From Patescibacteria group bacterium (GTDB taxonomy: Bacteria; Patescibacteriota; Gracilibacteria; UBA4473), in assembly GCA_965660445.1 (NCBI GenBank), contig CBFIAK010000002.1, positions 64,001 through 128,000 of the forward strand: DNA of 64,000 nt, written 5' to 3'. Both the position numbers and the translations under genes were made by a program. Position 1 is the stretch's first letter, and every line of letters starts with the position of its first letter. The notes beneath the pieces are model-generated. The model made no database searches. It was not told where the DNA came from and was given only the letters and a program-made list of their open reading frames with translations. Below, in pieces: positions 6,361-18,747 of the stretch.

Positions 6361-6514
6361 GTGTGTGTTTTTTGTATGAACAAAATCGCTTCATTATAAC
6401 ACAAACAAAAAATTTTTTCAATTGTTTCTGTTTCGAAAATCATAGTTTTCCTTTGAAAATTATTTGACCAAAAAAAAATTTTCGTTAAAGTTTTGAGGCT
6501 GTTTTTTTGTTTAC

Positions 6515-6592
6515 GGGATCGTAGCTCAGTTGGTTTAGAGCGCCGCCCTGTCACGGCGGAGGTCGCGGGTTCGAGTCCCGTCGGTCCCGCCA
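6515..6592 (+). tRNA. tRNA-Asp(GUC)
   Basis: GGGATCGTAGCTCAGTTGG...CCGCC-CTGTCAC-GGCGG...GTTCGAGTCC...GCCA. Confidence 0.97.
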
Positions 6593-6636
6593 GATATACT
6601 TTTAAAAAAAAGAATCTGGTGAAAACAGTATATAGG

Positions 6637-6668
6637 AAAAAACCATATCATGCGATGTGGTTTTTTTT
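6637..6668 (+). terminator. intrinsic terminator after tRNA-Asp, probably bidirectional
   Basis: AAAAAACCATATC-ATGC-GATGTGGTTTTTTTT hairpin with A and T tracts. Confidence 0.7.
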
Positions 6669-6811
6669 GATACTAAAAAAAGGACGGATTTTTTGACACA
6701 TTTCGCAAATTTTCATAGAGTTTTCACGTATTAAGACGAGAGAGGATCCGGACGGTGTTAGTGCCTAAGGAGCCTTTTTCATGTATAAATCGTTTTTTTT
6801 AAGTCGTTAAA

Positions 6812-7558
6812 ATCTACAAAAGTAGAAATTTAATGGTGAAATTAAACAAATCCGAACCCAAAAAGCCAATTGATTCTATCTACAAAAGTAGAAATTTAAT
6901 GGTGAAATTAAACCAAAAGAAAGAGTTACTATTAGAATCTGATCTACAAAAGTAGAAATTTAATGGTGAAATTAAACCCAACTTGTTTTTGGTGTTTGGT
7001 ACGCCTATCTACAAAAGTAGAAATTTAATGGTGAAATTAAACTTGGAACAGGAGGTTGCAGACTTCGTTATCTACAAAAGTAGAAATTTAATGGTGAAAT
7101 TAAACAATAATATGACAAATAATATAAATAACATATCTACAAAAGTAGAAATTTAATGGTGAAATTAAACCTCCAACACCCTTGCAGGACGAGACTCATC
7201 TACAAAAGTAGAAATTTAATGGTGAAATTAAACTAAAAAGTACAAAATCATTATACCTATATAATCTACAAAAGTAGAAATTTAATGGTGAAATTAAACA
7301 CCGTATCCCCCTCCTTCGCTAATACTGATCTACAAAAGTAGAAATTTAATGGTGAAATTAAACTCATAAGTATAAGCATTTGATTCGCTTGTATCTACAA
7401 AAGTAGAAATTTAATGGTGAAATTAAACGGAGAAGATTTAATATGTATGTCAAACAGATCTACAAAAGTAGAAATTTAATGGTGAAATTAAACGAATATT
7501 ACTATTATGATGAACAACAATTATCTACAAAAGTAGAAATTTAATGGTGAAATTAAAC
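6812..7558 (-). CRISPR. type V-A CRISPR array, 12 identical 36-nt repeats and 11 spacers of 27-30 nt
   Basis: Repeat on minus strand GTTTAATTTCACCATTAAATTTCTACTTTTGTAGAT with the Cas12a AATTTCTAC-N4-GTAGAT handle. Plus-strand starts: 6812, 6878, 6942, 7007, 7070, 7135, 7198, 7264, 7328, 7393, 7458, 7523. Confidence 0.99.
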
Positions 7559-7734
7559 CCTTAAAATCTGATAGCAAAGCCAAAAGATACAAACAGTATC
7601 TTTTTGAGTGACCGCGACTTTTGGCTTTGTTATCATGTCTTCGAAAAATAAAGACTTAGGTTTGCTTGTTGTGTTAATTTCCTCACAGAAACTTATACCT
7701 TTGTGTGAATTAATGGAATGGGAAAGATCAAACG
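7559..7734 (-). promoter_or_regulatory. CRISPR leader with an 18-bp inverted repeat
   Basis: Lies between the cas2 stop and the first repeat; arms 7569-7586 and 7618-7635 match 17/18. Confidence 0.7.
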
Positions 7735-8013
7735 TTACAAAAATAGTATATCATCATCCATATTTTTTGCATAGCCGAACTTCATTATTTTATCAGTTGA
7801 TTTGTTTGATAGCCTGATAATCATAACACTATCGATTCCTGAAAAATGTTTTTTGTATCGTTTTTCTATTTCAGCAGTTATAAGGTTCAAAATTCTATCG
7901 CTATTTTTTATTTCATAGACTGAATATTGTAGGCGATATCCAAATTTTTTTAAAAAACTAGAAAACCGAGTTCTTACTTTGTCGTTAGAGATATCATAAG
8001 TTATGAGAAGCAT
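7735..8013 (-). CDS. cas2: CRISPR-associated endonuclease Cas2
   Basis: MLLITYDIS..K.RT.F..FLKKFG.RLQYSVYE. Confidence 0.96.
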   Translation of the reverse strand: MLLITYDISNDKVRTRFSSFLKKFGYRLQYSVYEIKNSDRILNLITAEIEKRYKKHFSGIDSVMIIRLSNKSTDKIMKFGYAKNMDDDILFL

Positions 8014-8015
8014 TT

Positions 8016-8972
8016 TTATTGTGGTTTATAGCATTGAAATTCTAGAGATTCTTTCATAGAAGCTCTGTAATATTCTTGTATATATTTAAATATTTCAGAT
8101 TTTTCTTTGAGTATAGCTTTGAAGAATATACTCGTATATTTTGTTCCTTTTTCGTATTTCAAAATATATTGTCCTTTTTGTATTTCGAAATCATTTTCAT
8201 CTACCTGTTTTAGATTAAATGCTTTGAGTAATTCTTTATCTATTATACATCGACAGGGTTCTATTATGTCGCATACTAAAGATTTTCTTTTATAAAATTC
8301 TTGATGAAGGTTTCCCACATATGTATCAAATCCATAAAGTCTTAACTGTGCATCAATAAAATGGAATAAAAATGTATATCCCATATCTAATAATAGATTT
8401 GGGATATCATATTTTGTGCGTGGCTTTCTTCCTTTCCACTTTATATTATAAAAATAGGAACTAAAAAATGATTTGGCGCAACTTCCTTCTATTCCCATAA
8501 GTTCATCAATAGCTTTTGTGTTTGTTATTTTTATTCTTCTTGTTTCTAGTACATCAGCTATTTCATCACCGCAAAATATTTTTGATCGAGTATTTCTGAG
8601 TATGTGAATTTGATTTTGTATTTTTGTATCTACTATTTTTTGTGCAATTTCGAATGAGTTCTTATTGCTATATTGTTTTTTCCTTAAAATAGTATTTCCC
8701 TCGGTTTCACTTCCTATGACTGCATATGTTTGAAAGTTTCGTTTTAAAAGAAATATAACAATTCCATAACTGAGAAGCTTTTTAATAATAACACTTGTTA
8801 GTGTGCATTCTCCCCATATAAATATCGCAAATATTTTAATACAAGGGACTTGTTGTTTTCTTATCCCGTCTTTTTTTAATAATAGATTGTCATTTTGAAA
8901 AGATATCTCTTTTGCATCTTGAGAGTTTATAAAAAGTATTTGTTTTGCACTGAAGTCGGGAAGAGATAACAT
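8016..8972 (-). CDS. cas1: type V CRISPR-associated endonuclease Cas1
   Basis: MLSLPDF start, LMGIEG, GRKPRTKYDIPNLLLDMGY, GNLHQEFYKRKSLVCDIIEP. Confidence 0.96.
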   Translation of the reverse strand: MLSLPDFSAKQILFINSQDAKEISFQNDNLLLKKDGIRKQQVPCIKIFAIFIWGECTLTSVIIKKLLSYGIVIFLLKRNFQTYAVIGSETEGNTILRKKQYSNKNSFEIAQKIVDTKIQNQIHILRNTRSKIFCGDEIADVLETRRIKITNTKAIDELMGIEGSCAKSFFSSYFYNIKWKGRKPRTKYDIPNLLLDMGYTFLFHFIDAQLRLYGFDTYVGNLHQEFYKRKSLVCDIIEPCRCIIDKELLKAFNLKQVDENDFEIQKGQYILKYEKGTKYTSIFFKAILKEKSEIFKYIQEYYRASMKESLEFQCYKPQ

Positions 8973-8978
8973 TTTTTA

Positions 8979-9527
8979 TTATTTATAAGAATCACACAAT
9001 TCGTTGTATATGCATTTTGAGCATTTATTTATATTTGTGTTTATATCTTGAGTAATACTATATGAACGCATTCTCTTTAGAGTGTTTTCAAATTTTGTTT
9101 TTTGGTATAGATCGGGCTTTTCTATTTCAGTTCTTTTATTATCAGTAAGAGAATGAATAAATAGTCTTTCAACACGGTGCCCCATTTCTTGAAGACAAAA
9201 CATCTGAGCCCATAATTGATATTTATATCCATCATAAATTTTAAAAATCTTATTTTTTCTTTCTATTAGGTGATTGTCTTTAGTATTCAGCATGTCTATT
9301 TTTCCACATAATCCGTATTTCTGACTATATACATCAAGGTTTGTGATCCATTTCTTTTCAGATGAATACTTTTTTTGATCAATTGATTCATGGGCTATTT
9401 TTCCATTCCTTTGTGATTCTTGATGATAAATTGCTTCATTATATTTTTGATATAATTTATGAAAATAAATAGACTTTGGGCAGAAAACAAAGTCGTTGAT
9501 ATTTGAAATAGGGATGTATGATTCCAT
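8979..9527 (-). CDS. cas4: type V CRISPR-associated Cas4
   Basis: ISNINDFVFCPKSIYFH, GKIDM, ERK, QLWAQMFCL, C-terminal CxxCxxxxxC FeS ligands. Confidence 0.95.
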   Translation of the reverse strand: MESYIPISNINDFVFCPKSIYFHKLYQKYNEAIYHQESQRNGKIAHESIDQKKYSSEKKWITNLDVYSQKYGLCGKIDMLNTKDNHLIERKNKIFKIYDGYKYQLWAQMFCLQEMGHRVERLFIHSLTDNKRTEIEKPDLYQKTKFENTLKRMRSYSITQDINTNINKCSKCIYNELCDSYK

Positions 9528-9637
9528 TTTTTATATTAAAGTAAAATATCAAAAATATATGTCAATTTTATTTTGTGATTTAAAAAGATTGAAAATCTTA
9601 ATTTTTTCTTTATATTTTAATAAATATCTATTGTGTT

Positions 9638-12600
9638 ATGAATGAATATGAGCTCCCGTATGAACAAAGAAAAACTATTCGTTTTTCCTTGGAACCAAAG
9701 GAGATAGGAAGAGTATATGAGCCAATAAAATCCTCAAAAAATTTAGGTGAACAACTTCAAGATTTTATTACACAATATCAATCAATTATTACTAATTTAG
9801 AAAAGCAAATCTTTTTTAATAAAGATGGGAAAAAAAGTTTAAAGAAGAAAATTTGCATAAAACATGCATGGCTTCGAACTTACACTAAAACAGAATTTTA
9901 TAATGTAAAATATAAAATTATCATTGTTGATAATGATGGGCGAAAAAGAGATAATAAAAGCTTAATTAGTGACACTGATTTATCTTTTTTGAAAGAGTAT
10001 TTTGAAAATTGGATTATTGAAAATCAGGAATGCGTGAATAGTTTACAAAGTTTTTTAGAGCAACCAGAAGAAAGCCAAAAACGGATTTCCGAGTTCGCCT
10101 ATTGGATCCAAAGAATTTCAAAGCGAAGTAATTTTGAAGCTCTTTTTGAATTGTTTAATGAAAATATTAATCATAAAGACAGTAATGAAGAAATTGATAG
10201 AATTAAAAAGGTTTTGAATGAATGTAAACTATTACTAAAAACTTTGGAAAAAGAACTTTTGCCTAGCCAGTCTTTGGGATTAGAAATTGAACGAGCAAGC
10301 TTGAATTATTATACCGTGAATAAAAAACCGAAAGATTATGATGAGGAAATAAACAAGAAAAAAGAGGCTCTTTCAGAGAGCGACAGCTTTCAAAAAGCAG
10401 ATATAGATTTATTTACAAAAGTTGAATTTACCGAAAAAGACCTTCCTATCGGGGATCTTAAACAAGCAATGAAAGTATTTAAAGCAAACCAGAAGTCAAA
10501 GTTTTATGAGTTTGTTAATCAAAATAAAAGTTATGATGACTTACAAAATAATGATGGGTTAAAATTGTTAAATGACATTATCAAAGCAAATTTTAATAAA
10601 TTTAAAAGTGAGAAGGACAAGCAAAAAAGAGGTAAGCACTTTCAATTTTCATTCAGTAAATATAAGAAATTCTGCAATATATATAAAAATATTGTTGTAA
10701 AATACGGTCAAATTAAAGCTAAAATCAAAACTCTAGAAAAAGAAAAGATAGATGCCGAGCGGATGCAATCATGGGCGATGATTTTAGAGAAAGACAATCA
10801 AAAATATATTCTTACGATTCCACGTGATGCTCATAGTAATCTTCCAAGTGCTAAAAATTATATTAATGGTCTGAAAGATGAACTAGATGGTACATGGAAA
10901 CTTCATGCTTTTGAATCTTTAACATTGCGGGCGTTGGATAAGCTTTGTTTTGGATTAGATAAAAACACATTTCTTCCGACAATAAAAGATGAATTACAGC
11001 AAAAAGATGCATCTTTTCTTGAAGCTGGAAATCTAAAGCGAAAAGATCAGTTTTCTGATGATGGTTTAGAGTTGATTAAGTTTTATCAGACAGTTTTAGG
11101 TTTGGACGCAACTCGAAAGGTTCTAGCGATAAGTGATTTTAAAGGACTAGCAGCGATTATAGGTAATGAGAATTATGAGAACAAAGAAGAGTTTGAAAAA
11201 GACTTAAAACAAGCTTGTTACTATAAAAAAGCAATTACTATTTCTAAAGAAACTAAAAACACATTGGTCAAATCCTACAAAGGAAATCTGTATAAAATCA
11301 CCAGTTATGATTTGCAGAAGAAAGATAATGAAGAAATCAACAAATTAGAAAATAAGCAAGAATTTGATAGAAGTAATTCTGAAGTACACACTAAAATTTG
11401 GTTAAATTTCTGGACGGTAGATAATACTAAAAGAAGATATGATATAAGGCTTAATCCGGAATTAAAGATTAGTTTTGTAGAGAAGAAAACTGAAGAGTTG
11501 AAAGATGAAAATTTGGGAATGTTAAAGAAGAATAGAAGACAAGAAGATAGATATTTACTTTCAACAACTATTACCTTACAAGCCCATAAACGAAATGCTG
11601 ATTTGTCATTTAAGGGAACGGATGAAATTGTGAACTTTATTCAGACATATAACGATGAATTCAATAAAAATATAAAACCTTTTGATATTTACTACTATGG
11701 TTTGGATAGAGGACAGAAAGAGCTTCTTACTTTAGGAGTGTTTAAGTTTTTGGAATCAAAAAAAATTCCGTTTACAAAACAAGATAATTCATCAGGAAAA
11801 TACTATAAGCCAGAATTTATTCCAATTGAAGCATATGAGCTAAAATCAGATAAGTTTTTAGAACAAAATGAGAAAGGTAGAATAGCTTATAAAAGTATTT
11901 CTGAATTTATAGATAATACCGATATTGTTAAGAAAAAAGATATTAATTCTTGTTTTGATATGTCTACCGCCAAATTAATTAAAGACAAAATTGTTATCAA
12001 TGGCGATATTGCAACATATCTTGAGCTAAAACGAATAAGCGCATTGCGGAAAATTTATGAAGGAACAACACAAGGGAAATTTAAGTCCGAAAATATCTGC
12101 TTTAATGCGGATAAAGGAGCATTATTTCTCAATATAGAAAATAGAGGAAAATTGGAGAATAAAGATTTGTATTTTTATGATGAACGCTTTGCAAGTATTC
12201 TTTCCTTGAATGATATCAAAAAAGAATTACAAGATTATTACAGTACTCTTAAAAATAAAGGCGGAGTTGAAATTATTACCATTGATAAAGTAAATAATCT
12301 TCGCGATGCTCTTTGCGCTAACGCAGTTGGTATTTTAAATCATTTGCAAAAACAATTCTCTGGAATGATGTTTTTCGAAAATTTGGATATTTCAAATAAA
12401 AATCAAAGAATTAGTGAATTTTCAGGGAATCTAGGAAGTCGAATTGAATGGAAATTACTACAAAAATTTCAAACTCTTAATCTAGTGCCTCCCAATTATA
12501 AACAGGCAATGATCTTGCAAAGCAAAAAAAGTATTAACCAACTGGGAATAATTGCATATATAAAAACGAGTGGTACTAGTAACGAATGTCCTCATTGTGG

Positions 12601-12787
12601 CACAAAAAATTCAGATAAAACGAAAAAATGGCAGGGACATGCTTATGAGTGTATAAATAGCCACTGTCTATTTAGTACAGAAGATAAGGGAAATAGGCAA
12701 GGTCTTGATTGTCTTGATGATTCAGATAAAGTGGCAAGTTATAATATTGCAAAAAGGGGACTAGACTTCATTATTAGAAAAAAATAA
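9638..12787 (+). CDS. divergent type V effector, Cms1/Cas12a2-related (Smithella-type, Cas12a3-like), 1049 aa
   Basis: WED start KTIRFSLEP; RuvC-I YGLD690RG, RuvC-II FFE914NL, RuvC-III DSD1030KVASYNIAKRG; Zn ribbon C984PHC987...C1005...C1010. Motifs LPSQSLG..ASLNYYTVNKK, FESLTLRALDKLCFG, RLNPE and DMSTAKLIKDKIVINGD resemble Smithella Cms1 as recalled from memory. Confidence 0.85.
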   Translation: MNEYELPYEQRKTIRFSLEPKEIGRVYEPIKSSKNLGEQLQDFITQYQSIITNLEKQIFFNKDGKKSLKKKICIKHAWLRTYTKTEFYNVKYKIIIVDNDGRKRDNKSLISDTDLSFLKEYFENWIIENQECVNSLQSFLEQPEESQKRISEFAYWIQRISKRSNFEALFELFNENINHKDSNEEIDRIKKVLNECKLLLKTLEKELLPSQSLGLEIERASLNYYTVNKKPKDYDEEINKKKEALSESDSFQKADIDLFTKVEFTEKDLPIGDLKQAMKVFKANQKSKFYEFVNQNKSYDDLQNNDGLKLLNDIIKANFNKFKSEKDKQKRGKHFQFSFSKYKKFCNIYKNIVVKYGQIKAKIKTLEKEKIDAERMQSWAMILEKDNQKYILTIPRDAHSNLPSAKNYINGLKDELDGTWKLHAFESLTLRALDKLCFGLDKNTFLPTIKDELQQKDASFLEAGNLKRKDQFSDDGLELIKFYQTVLGLDATRKVLAISDFKGLAAIIGNENYENKEEFEKDLKQACYYKKAITISKETKNTLVKSYKGNLYKITSYDLQKKDNEEINKLENKQEFDRSNSEVHTKIWLNFWTVDNTKRRYDIRLNPELKISFVEKKTEELKDENLGMLKKNRRQEDRYLLSTTITLQAHKRNADLSFKGTDEIVNFIQTYNDEFNKNIKPFDIYYYGLDRGQKELLTLGVFKFLESKKIPFTKQDNSSGKYYKPEFIPIEAYELKSDKFLEQNEKGRIAYKSISEFIDNTDIVKKKDINSCFDMSTAKLIKDKIVINGDIATYLELKRISALRKIYEGTTQGKFKSENICFNADKGALFLNIENRGKLENKDLYFYDERFASILSLNDIKKELQDYYSTLKNKGGVEIITIDKVNNLRDALCANAVGILNHLQKQFSGMMFFENLDISNKNQRISEFSGNLGSRIEWKLLQKFQTLNLVPPNYKQAMILQSKKSINQLGIIAYIKTSGTSNECPHCGTKNSDKTKKWQGHAYECINSHCLFSTEDKGNRQGLDCLDDSDKVASYNIAKRGLDFIIRKK

Positions 12788-12821
12788 GAAAAACTAGTTT
12801 TCAATCAGAATGAATCCATTT

Positions 12822-15800
12822 TTATTCTTTTGTAAACGTAAAGTCGTCCCATTCTGTGTTTGATATATAGAGGTTTGGGTATTTGCTAAAATCAGAATCT
12901 GTGTGAGCGTGATCGGATAGTTTCTGTAAGAGAATAATTCCTTTTTTTGCGATATTATAAGCTCCATTCTCATCGCCATTAGTTGGAAGATTATTATTTT
13001 CTACTTTTCTACTATCAAAAAAAGGTTTTACAGGAGAAAGAATGAAGTCTTGTTTATTGATATCGTTTTCTTTTTCATCCGTGTTTCGTATCTGACAAAT
13101 TAAGTTAAAATAGAAGATGACATCCTTGAAAAATTGTTCATTCCCCTTTGTTTCTAATTCGTCAATTTGTCCTAAAATATTGCGATTCTTATCAAGGTTA
13201 TAAGTTTCAAATAATAATTCTATGTTTTTTGTAATATCTCTAAAGTGTTCATATCCACCTTTGTTGTTATTTGATTGCCGATTCCATCGAAAACGTTCTA
13301 CGCAACTGTAAACTGTCCAAATAGTGTTTTGAGGATATTCTTTTTGTTTTCGAAAATTTCGGATATTATAGGTGAATTCAAATCTTCCATTTTGAAATTC
13401 TATATTTGAGAATGTTAATATATCTTTTTTTGCATTTTCAGTATTCGAATATTTTAGATATAAATGAGGTCTCCATCCAGTAACGGGATCAATTTTTGAT
13501 GTATATGCTGCTTGTGTATAGAATATTATCCCAGTTTGTTTTCCCATTTTTTGGAAACTATCAAACGGGGCAGTAAGTTGGTATGCTCTCAATAGGTGTC
13601 CTGCTTTTTGAGGATCTATTTCGCCTTTGTGAACAAGAAATCCTAGTTTATCAATCAATGCTTTTTCAAGTTGTTGATAAATTGATTTTTCTATTCCTCC
13701 ACGAATTTGTTTAAATCGCATATTCAGATCTTCTAAAACAATGATTGCATTATGCTCAATTGCAAGATCGGCAAGTTTACGTACAACTTGTGAAATATAC
13801 CCTTTTTTTAAGTCTTTTATTCCTTCTACGGTTTGCCAATCTTTTCGGGCTTGTTCTCTGTGTTCAGCTTTTTCTTGTAGTTTTTCTGCATAATTTATCT
13901 GCGTATCGTTTCCTCCTTTTATAGTATTTAAACTTCCACTCTCAATTATTTTTCCTGCTTGTGTAATCACCGAATAATAGGCAAGATGTTTTTCTCCTCG
14001 GTCTACGCCAATAATATTTATATCTTGGTTATTTGCGAGAAAAGTATTTATTTTACTATTAAATTGAGATACATTATTTTCTGTTCTATTAAGTGTTATT
14101 GGAACATGAAAAAATATTTTGTTTTCAGTAAATCGATTTTTATGAAATGCTTTTTCGCTTTTTTCAAGAACTATTCCCTGATTTGTAGTAATTTTTTCTT
14201 TTTTTAAGTCTTTTGTTTTTGGTCGATAAAATATCTCGGCTTGTCCATTTAGTTTTATAGGGAAATTTTGAGATATGTTTTCATCAGAAAAAAGCGATTC
14301 AAAGTAAAGAGTATGAAGATTTTTAGATCCTCTAGATCCTTCATTCCAATCTTTGTTTTTAATTTGAAAGAGATAAAGTTCTCCACTTTTATTCTTTTCT
14401 TTTATATATGATTCGGAAATATCTTGAAAGGTTATTTTATAACCATCTTCAGCTACATCTCTAAAAAATTCGCCAATATTATCTTGGTAGTTTGTAGTTG
14501 TTTTTATATGAGTAAAATTATATCCTTTCCATCCTTCATATTGATTCAAGCAATTTTTATAAAAATCGATAAGTTTATGCATACTTGCAATGGAGAACGA
14601 ATCGCCTTTCTTGAATTCTTCATTTTTGTAAATATTTAAAATTTCTTCTGAAGGATAGAATTCATTTATTCCTTTTTTTGAAAAGCAAACTTTGGGAAAC
14701 ATCTTTGCTTGATCTGGAAAGAATTTATATACAACCTTTTGATATTTTCCTTGTTCAATGTTTTGGGAGAACTTTTCTTTGTTCCGTTTATCAAATATTT
14801 TATTGTTTCCTTTCTTCATCAGCCCAATAAAGTATCTCTCATCTTTTCGTAAAAGAATAGCTGAATTATCGGATTCTTTATTCTTATCCCATCCATCCGC
14901 AAGTGTGGGATTCTCAAAATTGAGTTTCCATTTTTCTTCGCTATATGGTTTTTTTGTAAGATAGTTTCTTATTTTGTTATACGGTTGTATGATTTCCTCA
15001 TAAGCATTGTTATAAAAATGATCTTTGTATCCAAAATTAGGGTCATTATAAAAATTTCCAATTATGTAATCATCCCCAACCCATTTTCTTTTTTTCTCAA
15101 GAGAGAAATATTTTGCTATTTGATAAATACTTAAAACAGAGTCAGCAAAATTTTTGATAATAATCTTTGAATCTGAATTGAGTGTGAAATTATCAAGGAG
15201 ATTTGAGAAATCTTTTTCAAAGGTGTTATATCCAATTCCTATTACGGAGTCTGTTTTTGAATTAATTATTTCTCTATTAAAAAGAGAGTTAAACTCATAA
15301 TGAAAAATCGTTAAAAACTGATTCCAAATATTTTTTTCTGTGTGATTTAAAATCTCATTATATCTTTCTTTCCACATATTTCCTTCAAGTATTATATCTT
15401 CTAATGCGTTTTTAATATGTTCAAGTGCTATAAAATCAGGAAATGAATAGCCTCCATCTTTTTTTTTCGCAGATGATGTGATTTTTTTGTTTTTTAAAAT
15501 CTCAAAAATATGCTTTTCTAAAAATTCAGTTTCATTTGTCCATTTATGGGTAATGGTATTGAGAGCTTCTTTTGAGATGTGTATTTCAGAAAGATTATAT
15601 TTTTCTTGATTATTAATAAAATCAGTGAAAAGATTTCTTAAAATAATTGTTTTTGTCTCTGCTGATTGATGAAATGTTTTTAAAACTTCTAATAAGTCTG
15701 ATTCTCCTTCTATTTCATCAATAATTTCTTTTTCATATTCACTGAGTATTTGTTTGTCTAATAATTTAAAAAATGGAATCTTTTCACCTTTATTATCTTG

Positions 15801-16655
15801 TCTGTATTTATTGATACATTCATTAAGCCCTTTTAGTTTTTCTCCATTTTTTAGTGTTTTTCCTCCTAAGAGGGTATTGTATACATTAATACCATCTTGT
15901 AATAAACAAGAATTGTAGAAATCCAAAGAAAAAATACTTGAAAGTGATTGTCCGAAATTGAATTCTACTTCTGAGAAATCTATTTTTTCTTTTATACTCT
16001 CAAAAATAAGGATATTATCACAAAAACGTTTTAAATTTTGATCCACTATGCGAGTTGCAATTGCAGTCGTTGTTCCATCATCTTTATAGAAATTCTTACG
16101 AGTTTCAAAGAACTTTATAAAATATCCAGTAAAACCTTTCCAACTATCAAAAATAGAAATAACCTCATTTGTACTCTCATCTATTATTGTTGATTTTTCT
16201 TCCTCTCCATATCGTTCTTTGAGAATCTTAAAGATTTCTTCTTCAAAAAGAATACCTATATCGTTTTTCTTTATTTTTAAATGTGAATATTGTTGTGCCC
16301 AAATTTTGCCTTGTTCGTGAAAAAAGGTAATAACTTCTTTTCTGAGTTCTTTTTCTTTTTTTTTTATTTCTTTTGTATAATTTTTTTGATCAATTCTCCA
16401 TTTCTTAAAAATATCTAACTACTCTTTATTTAATCCAGAGAGAACTGCATTTTGAAGTGATTTCTGAACAAACTCTCTATGAAGACGATCAAAATAGGGT
16501 TTAGTAGCCTCATATTTTATTTTGATTGTTTCATCTTTCTCAAAAACTTTATTTTCTTCTAATAATTGTTGTGTATTGCCCACTGGTTTTAATTCAAAGC
16601 GTAATGTTTTACTAATTGGGTACTGATTGACGAAACTATCAAAGACAGATGACAT
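12822..16655 (-). pseudogene. cas12a: Cas12a (Cpf1), 1277 codons, with one in-frame TAG at codon 79 (16419-16421)
   Basis: YPISKTLRFELKP start, KLNFENPTLADGWDKNKE, LYLFQIKNKD, NLHTLYF, IIGVDRGE, IVLEDLN, GDENGAYNIA. The two ORFs share one frame and the region between them translates without other stops. Confidence 0.92.
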
Positions 16656-16743
16656 GTTTAATAAAATAAAAACATTCTTTTTATATCATAAAATGAAATA
16701 TTCTGAAAATTTAATTTCTATCACTATTTTATAAATACTCATC

Positions 16744-16765
16744 AAAAAACCCTTTAATAGAGTTT
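16744..16765 (-). terminator. putative terminator after tRNA-Arg
   Basis: Minus-strand AAACTCT-ATTAA-AGGGTTT followed by TTT. Confidence 0.5.
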
Positions 16766-16787
16766 AGATGTACAGTATGGAGCTTGG

Positions 16788-16862
16788 TGGTACCCCCGCC
16801 AAGAATTGAACTTGGATCTTCAGCTTAGAAGGCTGTTGCTCTATCCATTGAGCTACAGGGGC
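16788..16862 (-). tRNA. tRNA-Arg(UCU)
   Basis: GCCCCTGTAGCTCAATGGATAGAGCA-ACAGC-CTTCTAA-GCTGA...GTTCAATTC...GGGGGTACCA. Confidence 0.95.
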
Positions 16863-16989
16863 GTTTGGAAAACGGAGGGATTATAAGAAAAGAAGAAAAA
16901 AAAGAAAAGAAAAAATTTGACGCTCTTTCATTTTTTTATACAATTTTGAGGCTCTTGGCAAAAGAGGTATTCCTCATATATTTGCATAC

Positions 16990-17064
16990 GTCACCATCGT
17001 CTAGTGGTTAGGACGCCAGGTTTTCATCCTGGTAACGGGGGTTCGATTCCCCCTGGTGATGCCA
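16990..17064 (+). tRNA. tRNA-Glu(UUC)
   Basis: GTCACCATCGTCTAGTGGTTAGGAC-G-CCAGG-TTTTCAT-CCTGG...GTTCGATTCC...GCCA. Confidence 0.96.
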
Positions 17065-17077
17065 AAAAGCCCTGAAA

Positions 17078-17170
17078 TAAGAATTAGGAATTATGAATTA
17101 AGGAAACATCACAAGGTTTTGCACAACCTTGTGATGTTTGTGATGGAAACAAGATTCCAGATTCGATCAC
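17078..17170. repeat. intergenic palindromic/heptamer repeat element, copy B
   Basis: Perfect 15-bp hairpin 17104-17139 (AAACATCACAAGGTT-ttgcac-AACCTTGTGATGTTT), GAATTA heptamers, shares its core with 4564-4591. Confidence 0.7.
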
Positions 17171-17244
17171 TTTAGTGTTCCCGCCCTTCGCTGTGATTCT
17201 CAACTTTCAGTTTTGTTTTTTTGTTGTTTTGGTATCATCTATGT

Positions 17245-18747
17245 ATGAATACTGGTTTAGATATACATACTTTTATGACCATTTTAGTGAGTGTGCTTTT
17301 TGTGCGTACGGTGCTTTTTCATCTTGAGTTATGGCAACGCCGTGATTACCGTTGGGATCGTTTGCGTGAGCATCTGATGCGTACTACAGAAGGGCGACAA
17401 AAAATCTGGAACCTGTGGTTTTTTAAAGGTATGCCTCGTCCTGCATTATCGGGCAGACTTCTTTTTATTCTTTTCTTTTTTGGACTGCTCCTCTTTGCTC
17501 TCTTTCATAAATTTTATCCGTGGGATGTGCTGCTTATCCATATAAAAGAAGGGGAATTTATTCAACCGTATTTTTGGATTCTTCTTCTTGTCTTTGAACG
17601 ACTCTTATGGGCAATTATTGCCTCAGCCGTTCTATTTTCTCGTATTCCTGCGGATATACTCAAAGAACGATTATTTATTCGTGCTCAAAAAATAATAGAT
17701 ACCTACGAAAACGAAGTAATCCGTATCGGTATCACCGGAAGTTACGGAAAATCAACCACCAAAGAAATACTAGTCCATTTACTGAATACAGCTTTTGGAC
17801 CAGAGAATGTTTTATATAACCCTAAAAATCATAATACAGAAGTGGCTCTTGCACGACTCCTCCTGAATAGTCGTCAGTTTTTTACTCATCAATCAACAAA
17901 GCCAAAAATAATTGTTCTTGAAATGGGAGCCTACGGAAAAGGAGAAATAGAACGAGTTTGCCAATTTTTTCGTCCGCATATCAGTATTTTAACAGGAGTA
18001 AATAACCAACATATCCCCCTCTTTGGGTCACAACGAAATATCCAAGAAGCCAAATTCGAGCTCGCGCATGCAACGAGAGAAAAAGTTTTTTTTAATGCCG
18101 AGAGTGCATTACTCAAATCTATCTGTGAAGAAAAACAAGTTTCTGCCACCCTTATCCCTCTTTCGTTTCAATCAGCCCATAATATTACACCTCATCCGAC
18201 CTATACAGAGTTTGAAGTATATGGAGAAACGTTTCATCTTCCGTGGAGAGGGGAGTTTTTTGTACTGAACGCTTTGCTCGCTCTCGAAACCGCCCGAGAA
18301 TTAGATATACCCGTCTCACTTCTTTCAAACGCACTTCGCACTCTGCCTCCTCTTGAACGAGCGTTGAGTGTGCAAATACATCCTTCAGGAGCTCAAATAC
18401 TGGTTGATCCGTATTCAGCAAATCTTGATGGAGTCCTCTCGGCGGTTGATCAATTACGAATGGTTTCGGGGAAACGAATATTTGTAGGCATCCCTATGAT
18501 TGAACTGGGAAATACGACAAAAGAATCACATAGGATTCTCTTTGAAAAATTGAGAGATTGTGGAGCGTATGTATTCTGGATGAAACCAGATTATTCTTCA
18601 CTTGGTAAACAAATTTGTGGGGAAAAATTTATAGGAGACAATACTTCTGTCTTCCGTGAGTTAACGCAGCATCTTTCAAGTGAAGATATTATTCTTTTTG
18701 AGTCAAGAATTCCTCAGTCGTTCCAAAATATTATTGCCCCAAAATAG
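17245..18747 (+). CDS. murF: MurF-like Mur ligase with N-terminal TM segments
   Basis: IGITGSYGKSTTKE, NHNTEV, VLEMGAYGKGEI, HIPLFGS, DPYSAN, PMIELG. Confidence 0.82.
   Translation: MNTGLDIHTFMTILVSVLFVRTVLFHLELWQRRDYRWDRLREHLMRTTEGRQKIWNLWFFKGMPRPALSGRLLFILFFFGLLLFALFHKFYPWDVLLIHIKEGEFIQPYFWILLLVFERLLWAIIASAVLFSRIPADILKERLFIRAQKIIDTYENEVIRIGITGSYGKSTTKEILVHLLNTAFGPENVLYNPKNHNTEVALARLLLNSRQFFTHQSTKPKIIVLEMGAYGKGEIERVCQFFRPHISILTGVNNQHIPLFGSQRNIQEAKFELAHATREKVFFNAESALLKSICEEKQVSATLIPLSFQSAHNITPHPTYTEFEVYGETFHLPWRGEFFVLNALLALETARELDIPVSLLSNALRTLPPLERALSVQIHPSGAQILVDPYSANLDGVLSAVDQLRMVSGKRIFVGIPMIELGNTTKESHRILFEKLRDCGAYVFWMKPDYSSLGKQICGEKFIGDNTSVFRELTQHLSSEDIILFESRIPQSFQNIIAPK

Follow-up and report, generated by a model that had tools for sequence, protein, structure and literature searches.

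A type V-A CRISPR island in a Patescibacteria genome with an inverted Cas12a3-family effector and a nonsense codon in cas12a

Loci in which two type V nucleases stand beside one CRISPR array have already been published (PMC9811890; PMC13594972), and the available text of PMC9811890 reports that the guides of Cas12a and Cas12a2 are interchangeable. The preference of Cas12a3 for the tails of tRNAs is assigned, in the available sections of PMC12851939 and PMC13594972, to an insert that spans residues 855-960 of Ba1Cas12a3. RoiCas12a3 belongs to a clade without this insert and is described in the accessible part of PMC13594972 as cleaving target RNA efficiently, with high collateral RNA cleavage and a different pattern of tRNA degradation; ApCas12a4, according to the accessible part of PMC12851939, is activated by RNA and cuts RNA, not DNA. 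Here we describe a related locus on contig CBFIAK010000002.1 of a Patescibacteria group bacterium (assembly GCA_965660445.1), within a stretch of 64,000 nucleotides (positions 64,001 to 128,000) that we refer to as the window. Relative to the designs set out in the accessible text of the papers above, what is unusual here is that the gene of the second effector is inverted and that cas12a has a nonsense codon.

We consider it probable that the locus is an AT-rich type V-A island with a broken cas12a and an intact effector of the Cas12a3 family that lacks the tRNA-loading domain and occupies its usual slot on the flipped strand. What is established here comprises the anatomy of the locus, the stop codon, the type of repeat that is shared and, for the second effector, its family placement and the lack of one domain. 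The host genome (991 kb in five contigs) is 100% complete by marker genes. The array, cas2, cas1, cas4 and cas12a lie on the minus strand of the window, and between cas4 and cas12a the plus strand carries a gene for a protein of 1049 amino acids (aa). Open reading frame (ORF) coordinates derived anew and matches to family models agree with the gene order and strands given in the original prediction, an earlier annotation made from the letters of the window alone, and the sizes that it gave for the two gaps flanking the second effector are also correct. The match to Cas12a models, the handle-type repeats without an anti-repeat and the type V cas4-cas1-cas2 set mark the locus as type V-A. Its features, with those that bracket it, are:

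6515-6592, plus strand: tRNA-Asp(GTC), on the array side of the island (ARAGORN)
6812-7558, minus strand: CRISPR array of 12 identical 36-nucleotide (nt) repeats and 11 spacers of 27-30 nt (repeat analysis)
7559-7734, minus strand: putative leader, from cas2 to the first transcribed repeat, assigned by position only
7735-8013, minus strand: cas2, 92 aa (PF09827, E 9.8e-15; TIGR01573, 45.4 bits, cut-off 24.5)
8016-8972, minus strand: cas1, 318 aa, type V form (TIGR04329, 339.3 bits, cut-off 300)
8979-9527, minus strand: cas4, 182 aa, type V form (TIGR04328, 199.9 bits, cut-off 70)
9528-9637, no strand: divergent gap of 110 bp, 11.8% G+C (composition)
9638-12787, plus strand: second effector, 1049 aa, nuclease of the Cas12a3 family lacking the tRNA-loading domain (sequence and fold)
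12788-12821, no strand: convergent gap of 34 bp with the 12-nt palindrome AAAACTAGTTTT at 12790-12801 (sequence)
12822-16655, minus strand: cas12a, 1277 codons, one in-frame TAG at 16419-16421 (TIGR04330, Pfam)
16788-16862, minus strand: tRNA-Arg(TCT), on the cas12a side of the island (ARAGORN)
16990-17064, plus strand: tRNA-Glu(TTC), on the cas12a side of the island (ARAGORN)

The interrupted cas12a gene

The TAG in cas12a, which the original prediction did not notice, follows codon 78 and is the only in-frame stop, the other 1276 of the 1277 codons being open. The first start codon beyond it is a GTG at 16046, 125 codons downstream, which leaves an ORF of 1074 aa, and because of that distance a restart would lose the first 203 residues. 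The gene is recognizable on both sides of the stop: the 1074-aa part (residues 205-1277) scores 807.4 bits against TIGR04330 (cut-off 300), the first 78 aa score 67 bits, and the REC1, REC2, PI, RuvC and NUC domains of Pfam were all found. The part past the TAG has 61% identity with Cas12a from a locus of Roizmanbacteria (L014; loci of relatives are cited by their L numbers). Aligned with six relatives, cas12a has its stop at a position that varies (occupied in them by N, Y, Q, E, K or A), within a segment of low conservation that follows a conserved N-terminal motif.

In this genome TAG serves as an ordinary stop. Among its 502 ORFs of at least 250 aa, TAA ends 320, TAG 115 and TGA 67, and none of the 36 tRNA genes found in the genome is a suppressor or carries an anticodon that reads a stop. 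Recoding of TAG was ruled out on these two grounds. As assembled, cas12a should therefore yield no working protein, and Cas12a would then be truly off. That 1198 codons downstream of the TAG are open and that this part is so similar to its relative suggest that the lesion, if real, is very recent.

In-frame stops under translation table 11 were also seen in cas12a or in the second effector of four other loci (L010, L011, L030 and L077), where the longest cas12a ORF has 177-228 aa although similarity runs over the full length. For L010 and L011 these stops are likely TGA codons read as glycine (table 25) and not a sign of decay, because the records are from Absconditabacteria and Gracilibacteria.

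Family and domain content of the second effector

Pfam and NCBIfam gave no match for the second effector. Its placement in the group of Cas12a2, Cas12a3 and Cas12a4, which bears out the claim that the second gene encodes an effector of the RNA-triggered type, comes from phmmer, PADLOC and Foldseek. The PADLOC Cas12a model PDLC01230 matches it with E 1.2e-211. A phmmer search against the PDB returned Ba1Cas12a3 (9HLX, E 1.8e-71) and BaCas12a3 (21WE, E 1.4e-68) and, at E <= 1, nothing beyond Cas12a3, with no Cas12a2 chain. An AlphaFold2 model built on an alignment of 32 relatives (predicted local distance difference test score, pLDDT, 86.1; predicted template modelling score, pTM, 0.77) was compared with solved structures by Foldseek, with template modelling (TM) values normalised to the query. 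The binary complexes of Cas12a3 (9hlx and 21we) gave TM 0.78 at 23-25% identity, Cas12a2 (8d49, 8d4a and 8d4b) TM 0.42-0.48 at 13-14% identity, and Cas12a a TM of about 0.3 at 9-14% identity. SuCas12a2 is marked by a large insertion and an aromatic clamp that serve to shred dsDNA; identity of the second effector with Cas12a2 was rejected on the phmmer and TM scores above.

The RuvC residues D690, E914 and D1030 and the zinc-ribbon cysteines C984, C987, C1005 and C1010 are all present; across the 32 relatives D690 is invariant, and E914, D1030, C984, C987 and C1010 are nearly so. The family is also large, as 297 clusters at 50% identity match the protein at E <= 0.001. In the broad sense the second effector is thus a probable Cas12a3, nearest to that group by sequence and by fold and equipped with the RuvC triad and the zinc ribbon. 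In the strict sense, which includes a tRNA-loading domain between the RuvC segments, it is not.

The missing domain is evident from several alignments. HMMER alignments place 38 residues of the second effector opposite 113 in Ba1Cas12a3. In a ten-sequence alignment the insert interval holds 50 residues in the second effector, 46 in the Roizmanbacteria homologue of L014 and 42 in a Smithella homologue, and 125 residues in each of the domain carriers L051 (the BaCas12a3 locus), P0112 and L042. Across a set of 150 sequences, in which the window protein has 60 residues at this position, inserts of at least 126 residues occur in only six; five of these belong to the clade of P0112, a protein that scores 1468 bits on 21WE, and the sixth (P0184) lies outside it. 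In the AlphaFold2 model the position of the loading domain is taken by a short beta-hairpin (821-846). By analogy, RoiCas12a3 and ApCas12a4 are the best functional models for the second effector.

The position of the protein within the family was examined with a quick maximum-likelihood tree of 63 rows. The second effector pairs with the effector of L001, to which it is 74% identical, with a support of 99 in the Shimodaira-Hasegawa-like approximate likelihood ratio test (SH-aLRT). Both fall in a clade of 22 rows (SH-aLRT 99) that consists mostly of Patescibacteria records and has no characterised member. BaCas12a3 and the Roizmanbacteria proteins are placed on another branch, and a third clade, whose proteins are longer and come mostly from Bdellovibrionales, also stands apart from this one. 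The sequences of ApCas12a4 and RoiCas12a3 are outside the tree. The deep branching order is unreliable because the search was short, without a mixture model and rooted at the midpoint, and 12 rows have an odd composition.

The array, the slot and the origin of the island

In the sense of the CRISPR RNA (crRNA) the repeat is GTTTAATTTCACCATTAAATTTCTACTTTTGTAGAT, present in 12 identical copies of 36 nt. The repeats end in AATTTCTACTTTTGTAGAT, which fits the type V-A handle TCTAC-N-GTAGAT. That the locus has one array and no antirepeat of the kind found in a trans-activating CRISPR RNA (tracrRNA) had been predicted from the window, and it holds for the whole 991-kb genome, which contains this array alone and, allowing up to 9 substitutions in 36 nt, no repeat copy of opposite orientation. 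Where relatives of the second effector occur without cas12a (L001, L002 and L004), the adjacent arrays end in AATTTCTACTTTTGTAGAT as well, identical to the window's. More broadly, all arrays found beside relatives through the handle motif end in ATTTCTAC-N4-GTAGAT, a result that is partly due to the construction of the search. Because stand-alone relatives adjoin arrays with the same 3' repeat handle, it is plausible, and well supported by analogy, that both effectors could use the single array of the window.

None of the spacers had a convincing match in 50,697 phage records, the best rows being matches to the repeat or having E >= 0.07, and neither the rest of the genome nor the loci fetched for relatives gave a match. 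Tandem Repeats Finder reports a period of 130 for the array besides 65. By eye, spacers 4 and 6 (7043-7069 and 7171-7197) have short stretches in common, for instance TTGCAG, and may target related sequences. Far from the array, at G000:C1:339344, lies a 20-nt stretch two letters off the repeat handle, in the orientation of the array's plus-strand text; it is probably a chance occurrence in AT-rich DNA. A lone type V-A repeat was also seen in a virus. The archaeal Methanosarcina virus MetMV (MK170447.1, about 14848-14883; L113:1501-1536) has one complete 36-nt repeat between its genes, with the same letters as the consensus repeat of the array in Smithella sp. SCADC (L017), and a stand-alone relative of the second effector is encoded in a Methanosarcinaceae genome (L008). 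The viral repeat may act as a solitary RNA decoy against effectors of the Cas12a type.

To compare gene order we used 104 loci (94 distinct) from species-representative genomes and Joint Genome Institute (JGI) metagenomes, with neighbours mapped by tblastn. Cas12a is encoded in the fetched DNA of 39 of them. The order cas12a, effector, cas4 on a single strand occurs in 29 of these 39 two-nuclease loci, so that the slot between cas12a and cas4 is standard and the idea that the second effector had split a canonical operon is not sustained. Cas12a shares the effector's strand in 37 of these loci, all except L043 and L049. It lies upstream of the effector in 36, with L061 scored from coordinates, and its longest ORF reaches at least 1200 aa in 29. 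Adaptation genes lie on the effector's strand in 52 of the 53 loci that have any such gene (the exception is L018). The layout of the window, with the effector opposite to both neighbours, was found in none of the 39 loci. It is only the orientation that is unusual.

Several other loci are rearranged in ways of their own. In L018 cas4 and the effector are divergent and a cas12a fragment is present; in L025 the effector lies upstream of cas12a; in L043 cas12a is inverted; in L049 it is truncated and inverted and accompanied by cas4 and cas1 fragments; and in L085 cas4 lies between cas12a and the effector. The nearest relatives (L001-L004) have neither cas12a nor adaptation genes within an upstream flank of at least 4.5 kb and a downstream flank of at least 3 kb, and in three (L001, L002 and L004) 3-5 repeats follow directly downstream of the effector. 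Ten stand-alone relatives in all (L001-L004, L013, L024, L027, L041, L050 and L074) lack cas12a, cas1, cas2 and cas4 in flanks of this size. Such loci are cassettes of an effector plus a mini-array, several with only 3-5 repeats just downstream.

The modules of the window's locus have different nearest relatives. Cas12a is closest to that of L014. The effectors of L014 and of the second Roizmanbacteria locus, L012, share only 32% identity with the window's. The effector is closest to that of L001, a locus without cas12a, and Cas4 and Cas1 are closest to those of L059 (57% and 54%). At the DNA level L001 matches the window at 78% over 9659-12760 only, with no homology beyond the effector ORF. 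The G+C content of the island (6811-16655) is 28.4%, versus 36.4% for the remainder of the window, and a search of 40 related genomes found the effector in one and cas12a in three. The low G+C content, the flanking tRNA genes and the sporadic presence in related genomes suggest that the island was probably gained horizontally.

The tRNA-Asp, tRNA-Arg and tRNA-Glu genes that bracket this AT-rich DNA suggest insertion at a tRNA cluster. Many unrelated contigs from two sequencing runs (X1 and X3) pile up at the tRNA-Asp gene. In another genome of the same family (G018:C2:1487-4669; L109) a cas12a 56% identical to the window's lies near a contig end, and a query of that genome with the second effector found no relative.

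Competing explanations and known systems

The unusual orientation raises the question of whether the inversion is an assembly artefact and the true locus lies all on one strand, as in its relatives. Short-read metagenome assemblies are prone to mis-joins, and the absence of this orientation from the 39 related loci would fit such an error. Only one public run (X1) contains the stretch, assembled by a different assembler than the one used for the window, and a contig of 9761 nt from it (depth 18.6) matches 7523-17000 with 0 differences, a span that includes the two junctions as well as the TAG; the array is collapsed in it. This contig argues against a mis-join and remains compatible with a minority variant at the stop. 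It does not amount to independent data, because X1 may be the source sample of the window; run X3 holds only short, dissimilar pieces relative to the stretch. There is also nothing obvious that would cause a false flip: no inverted repeats pair the two junctions among the 25 longest of 260 pairs inspected, both gaps are unique sequence, and rearrangements occur in other relatives too (L018, L043, L049, L025 and L085). We therefore regard an artefact as highly improbable. A true flip mediated by inverted repeats was rejected as well, no pair joining both junctions among those inspected. If the inversion is real, it would be attractive to read the divergent gap as a bidirectional promoter that serves the adaptation genes and the effector, and the convergent 3' ends as a source of antisense RNA that regulates cas12a. 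The effector would need a promoter of its own, since no gene precedes it on its strand, and a promoter-like site lies in the divergent gap at 9589-9616 on the plus strand, 22 nt before the effector ATG. Neither gap has a terminator-like site, so that read-through into cas12a is possible. However, the 53 promoter-like sites in 6400-17300 do not exceed the 56.5 +/- 8.6 found in shuffled sequences, such matches are expected in DNA of 11.8% G+C, and the three terminator-like sites of the same interval are likewise at the shuffled level (3.5 +/- 1.9). The convergent gap folds no better than shuffles (z = -1.49 and +0.42), and a look for RNA runs that cover the locus found none. Its predicted 14-mer palindrome is absent as written, being off by one A, and the actual palindrome of the gap is the 12-nt sequence in the list above. 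Regulation of this kind seems to us quite unlikely.

The original prediction assigned two layers of defence to the locus, with Cas12a clearing DNA and the second effector providing RNA-triggered arrest as a back-up, both guided from one array. Its second half gains from the placement of the effector in the RNA-triggered group. The first half is weakened, because it needs an active Cas12a and the gene has a premature TAG. In its favour, cas12a is full length but for one codon, with five Pfam domains and 807 bits on TIGR04330; a long cas12a ORF is kept in most related loci (29 of 39); sharing of guides and a back-up role for Cas12a with Cas12a2 have been proposed and partly tested, according to the available text of PMC9811890; and the TAG may be an error or a single-strain variant. 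Against this, the TAG is found in two assemblies with no variant listed, it is a normal stop in this genome with no suppressor tRNA found, and a restart 125 codons further on would cost the first 203 residues. On balance two active layers appear unlikely here, though they deserve to be kept in mind. A more speculative suggestion, which we consider rather unlikely, is that of a hand-over, in which a Cas12a3-like nuclease, possibly with a collateral substrate of its own, entered or replaced the second slot as a cassette and is taking over the array as cas12a decays. Entry as a separate cassette would explain both the reverse orientation and an effector history that is discordant with that of cas12a. 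Were this true, the end state of the hand-over would be the stand-alone cassettes of the nearest relatives, and the collateral substrate of the clade might differ from the tRNA tails cut by Cas12a3 and from the activities of RoiCas12a3 and Cas12a4.

The reading that we favour, of an island with a broken cas12a and an intact, inverted Cas12a3-family effector, has several points against it. Beyond the TAG, 1198 codons remain open, with 61% identity to their counterpart in a relative, and the TAG could be a consensus error or a single-strain variant; the only other assembly may come from the same reads, and contigs hide rare variants. A protospacer was found for none of the spacers, and it is only by comparison with studied systems that we infer expression, guide processing and targeting at the locus. 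The second effector shares only 23-25% identity with the Cas12a3 proteins of solved structure and 32% with its homologues from Roizmanbacteria, and it belongs to a deep clade distinct from both, so that its collateral substrate may differ. In addition, R251 and N253 of Ba1Cas12a3, which contact the tRNA at its T-arm from a loop of REC2, align with I and L in the window protein, in a region of low confidence.

If the favoured reading is right, the array would be transcribed on the minus strand, and the second effector would cut its own guides from the same repeats. A complementary RNA with a suitable flanking sequence would activate it, and the activated enzyme would cut RNA in trans through its RuvC site and arrest growth. 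This scheme, and with it the predicted RNA triggering and substrate of the second effector, is modelled on what has been shown for RoiCas12a3, for ApCas12a4 and for Cas12a3, the last with tRNA tails as the substrate. The locus leaves the known working of such systems unchanged and is one more natural example of a family whose descriptions date only from 2023-2026. It also indicates that members lacking the loading domain occur widely among bacteria with small genomes and use ordinary Cas12a repeats, and that the pairing with Cas12a is fluid, as inversion, loss of cas12a and loss of adaptation genes are all seen. A wider question is whether such nucleases cooperate or one replaces the other, and it could be addressed with a loss of Cas12a that is dated and stands next to an RNA-triggered partner still intact. 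For tool building, a compact putative RNA-triggered RuvC nuclease of 1049 aa that would read Cas12a guides may merit testing.

Among described systems, the tandem loci of cas12a and cas12a2 (PMC9811890, available text) likewise have two type V effectors, one array and repeats of the Cas12a type, and they combine a DNA-cutting Cas12a with an RNA-triggered relative whose guides are interchangeable with its own. The window differs from the loci described there in that the partner is not Cas12a2, that it is inverted and not in tandem, and that cas12a has a stop codon. None of the literature matches listed linked Cas12a2 or Cas12a3 with Patescibacteria, which is a weak negative. The Cas12a3 systems 'associated with ... 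Cas12a systems' of PMC13594972 are of the same broad family and have cas1, cas2, cas4, an array and Cas12a in the locus; about 45% of the 28 candidates in that set, as given in the available text, come from gut Bacteroidota, whereas the window protein belongs to a clade dominated by Patescibacteria, and the orientation of the effector is not discussed in that text. The closest solved structures, Ba1Cas12a3 and BaCas12a3 (9HLX and 21WE), have the domain order, RuvC triad and zinc ribbon in common with the window protein; they cut tRNA tails, and the window protein, at 23-25% identity, lacks their loading domain (Ba1 residues 855-960). RoiCas12a3, as described in the accessible part of PMC13594972, has no loading-domain insert either, which makes it the best functional model for the window protein. 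The Roizmanbacteria effectors of L012 and L014, either of which may be RoiCas12a3, are only 32% identical to the window protein and fall in another deep clade. ApCas12a4, from what the accessible text of PMC12851939 states, cleaves RNA upon RNA triggering, with no preference for tRNA tails and no SOS response, and by analogy this is the behaviour that would be expected of the window protein.

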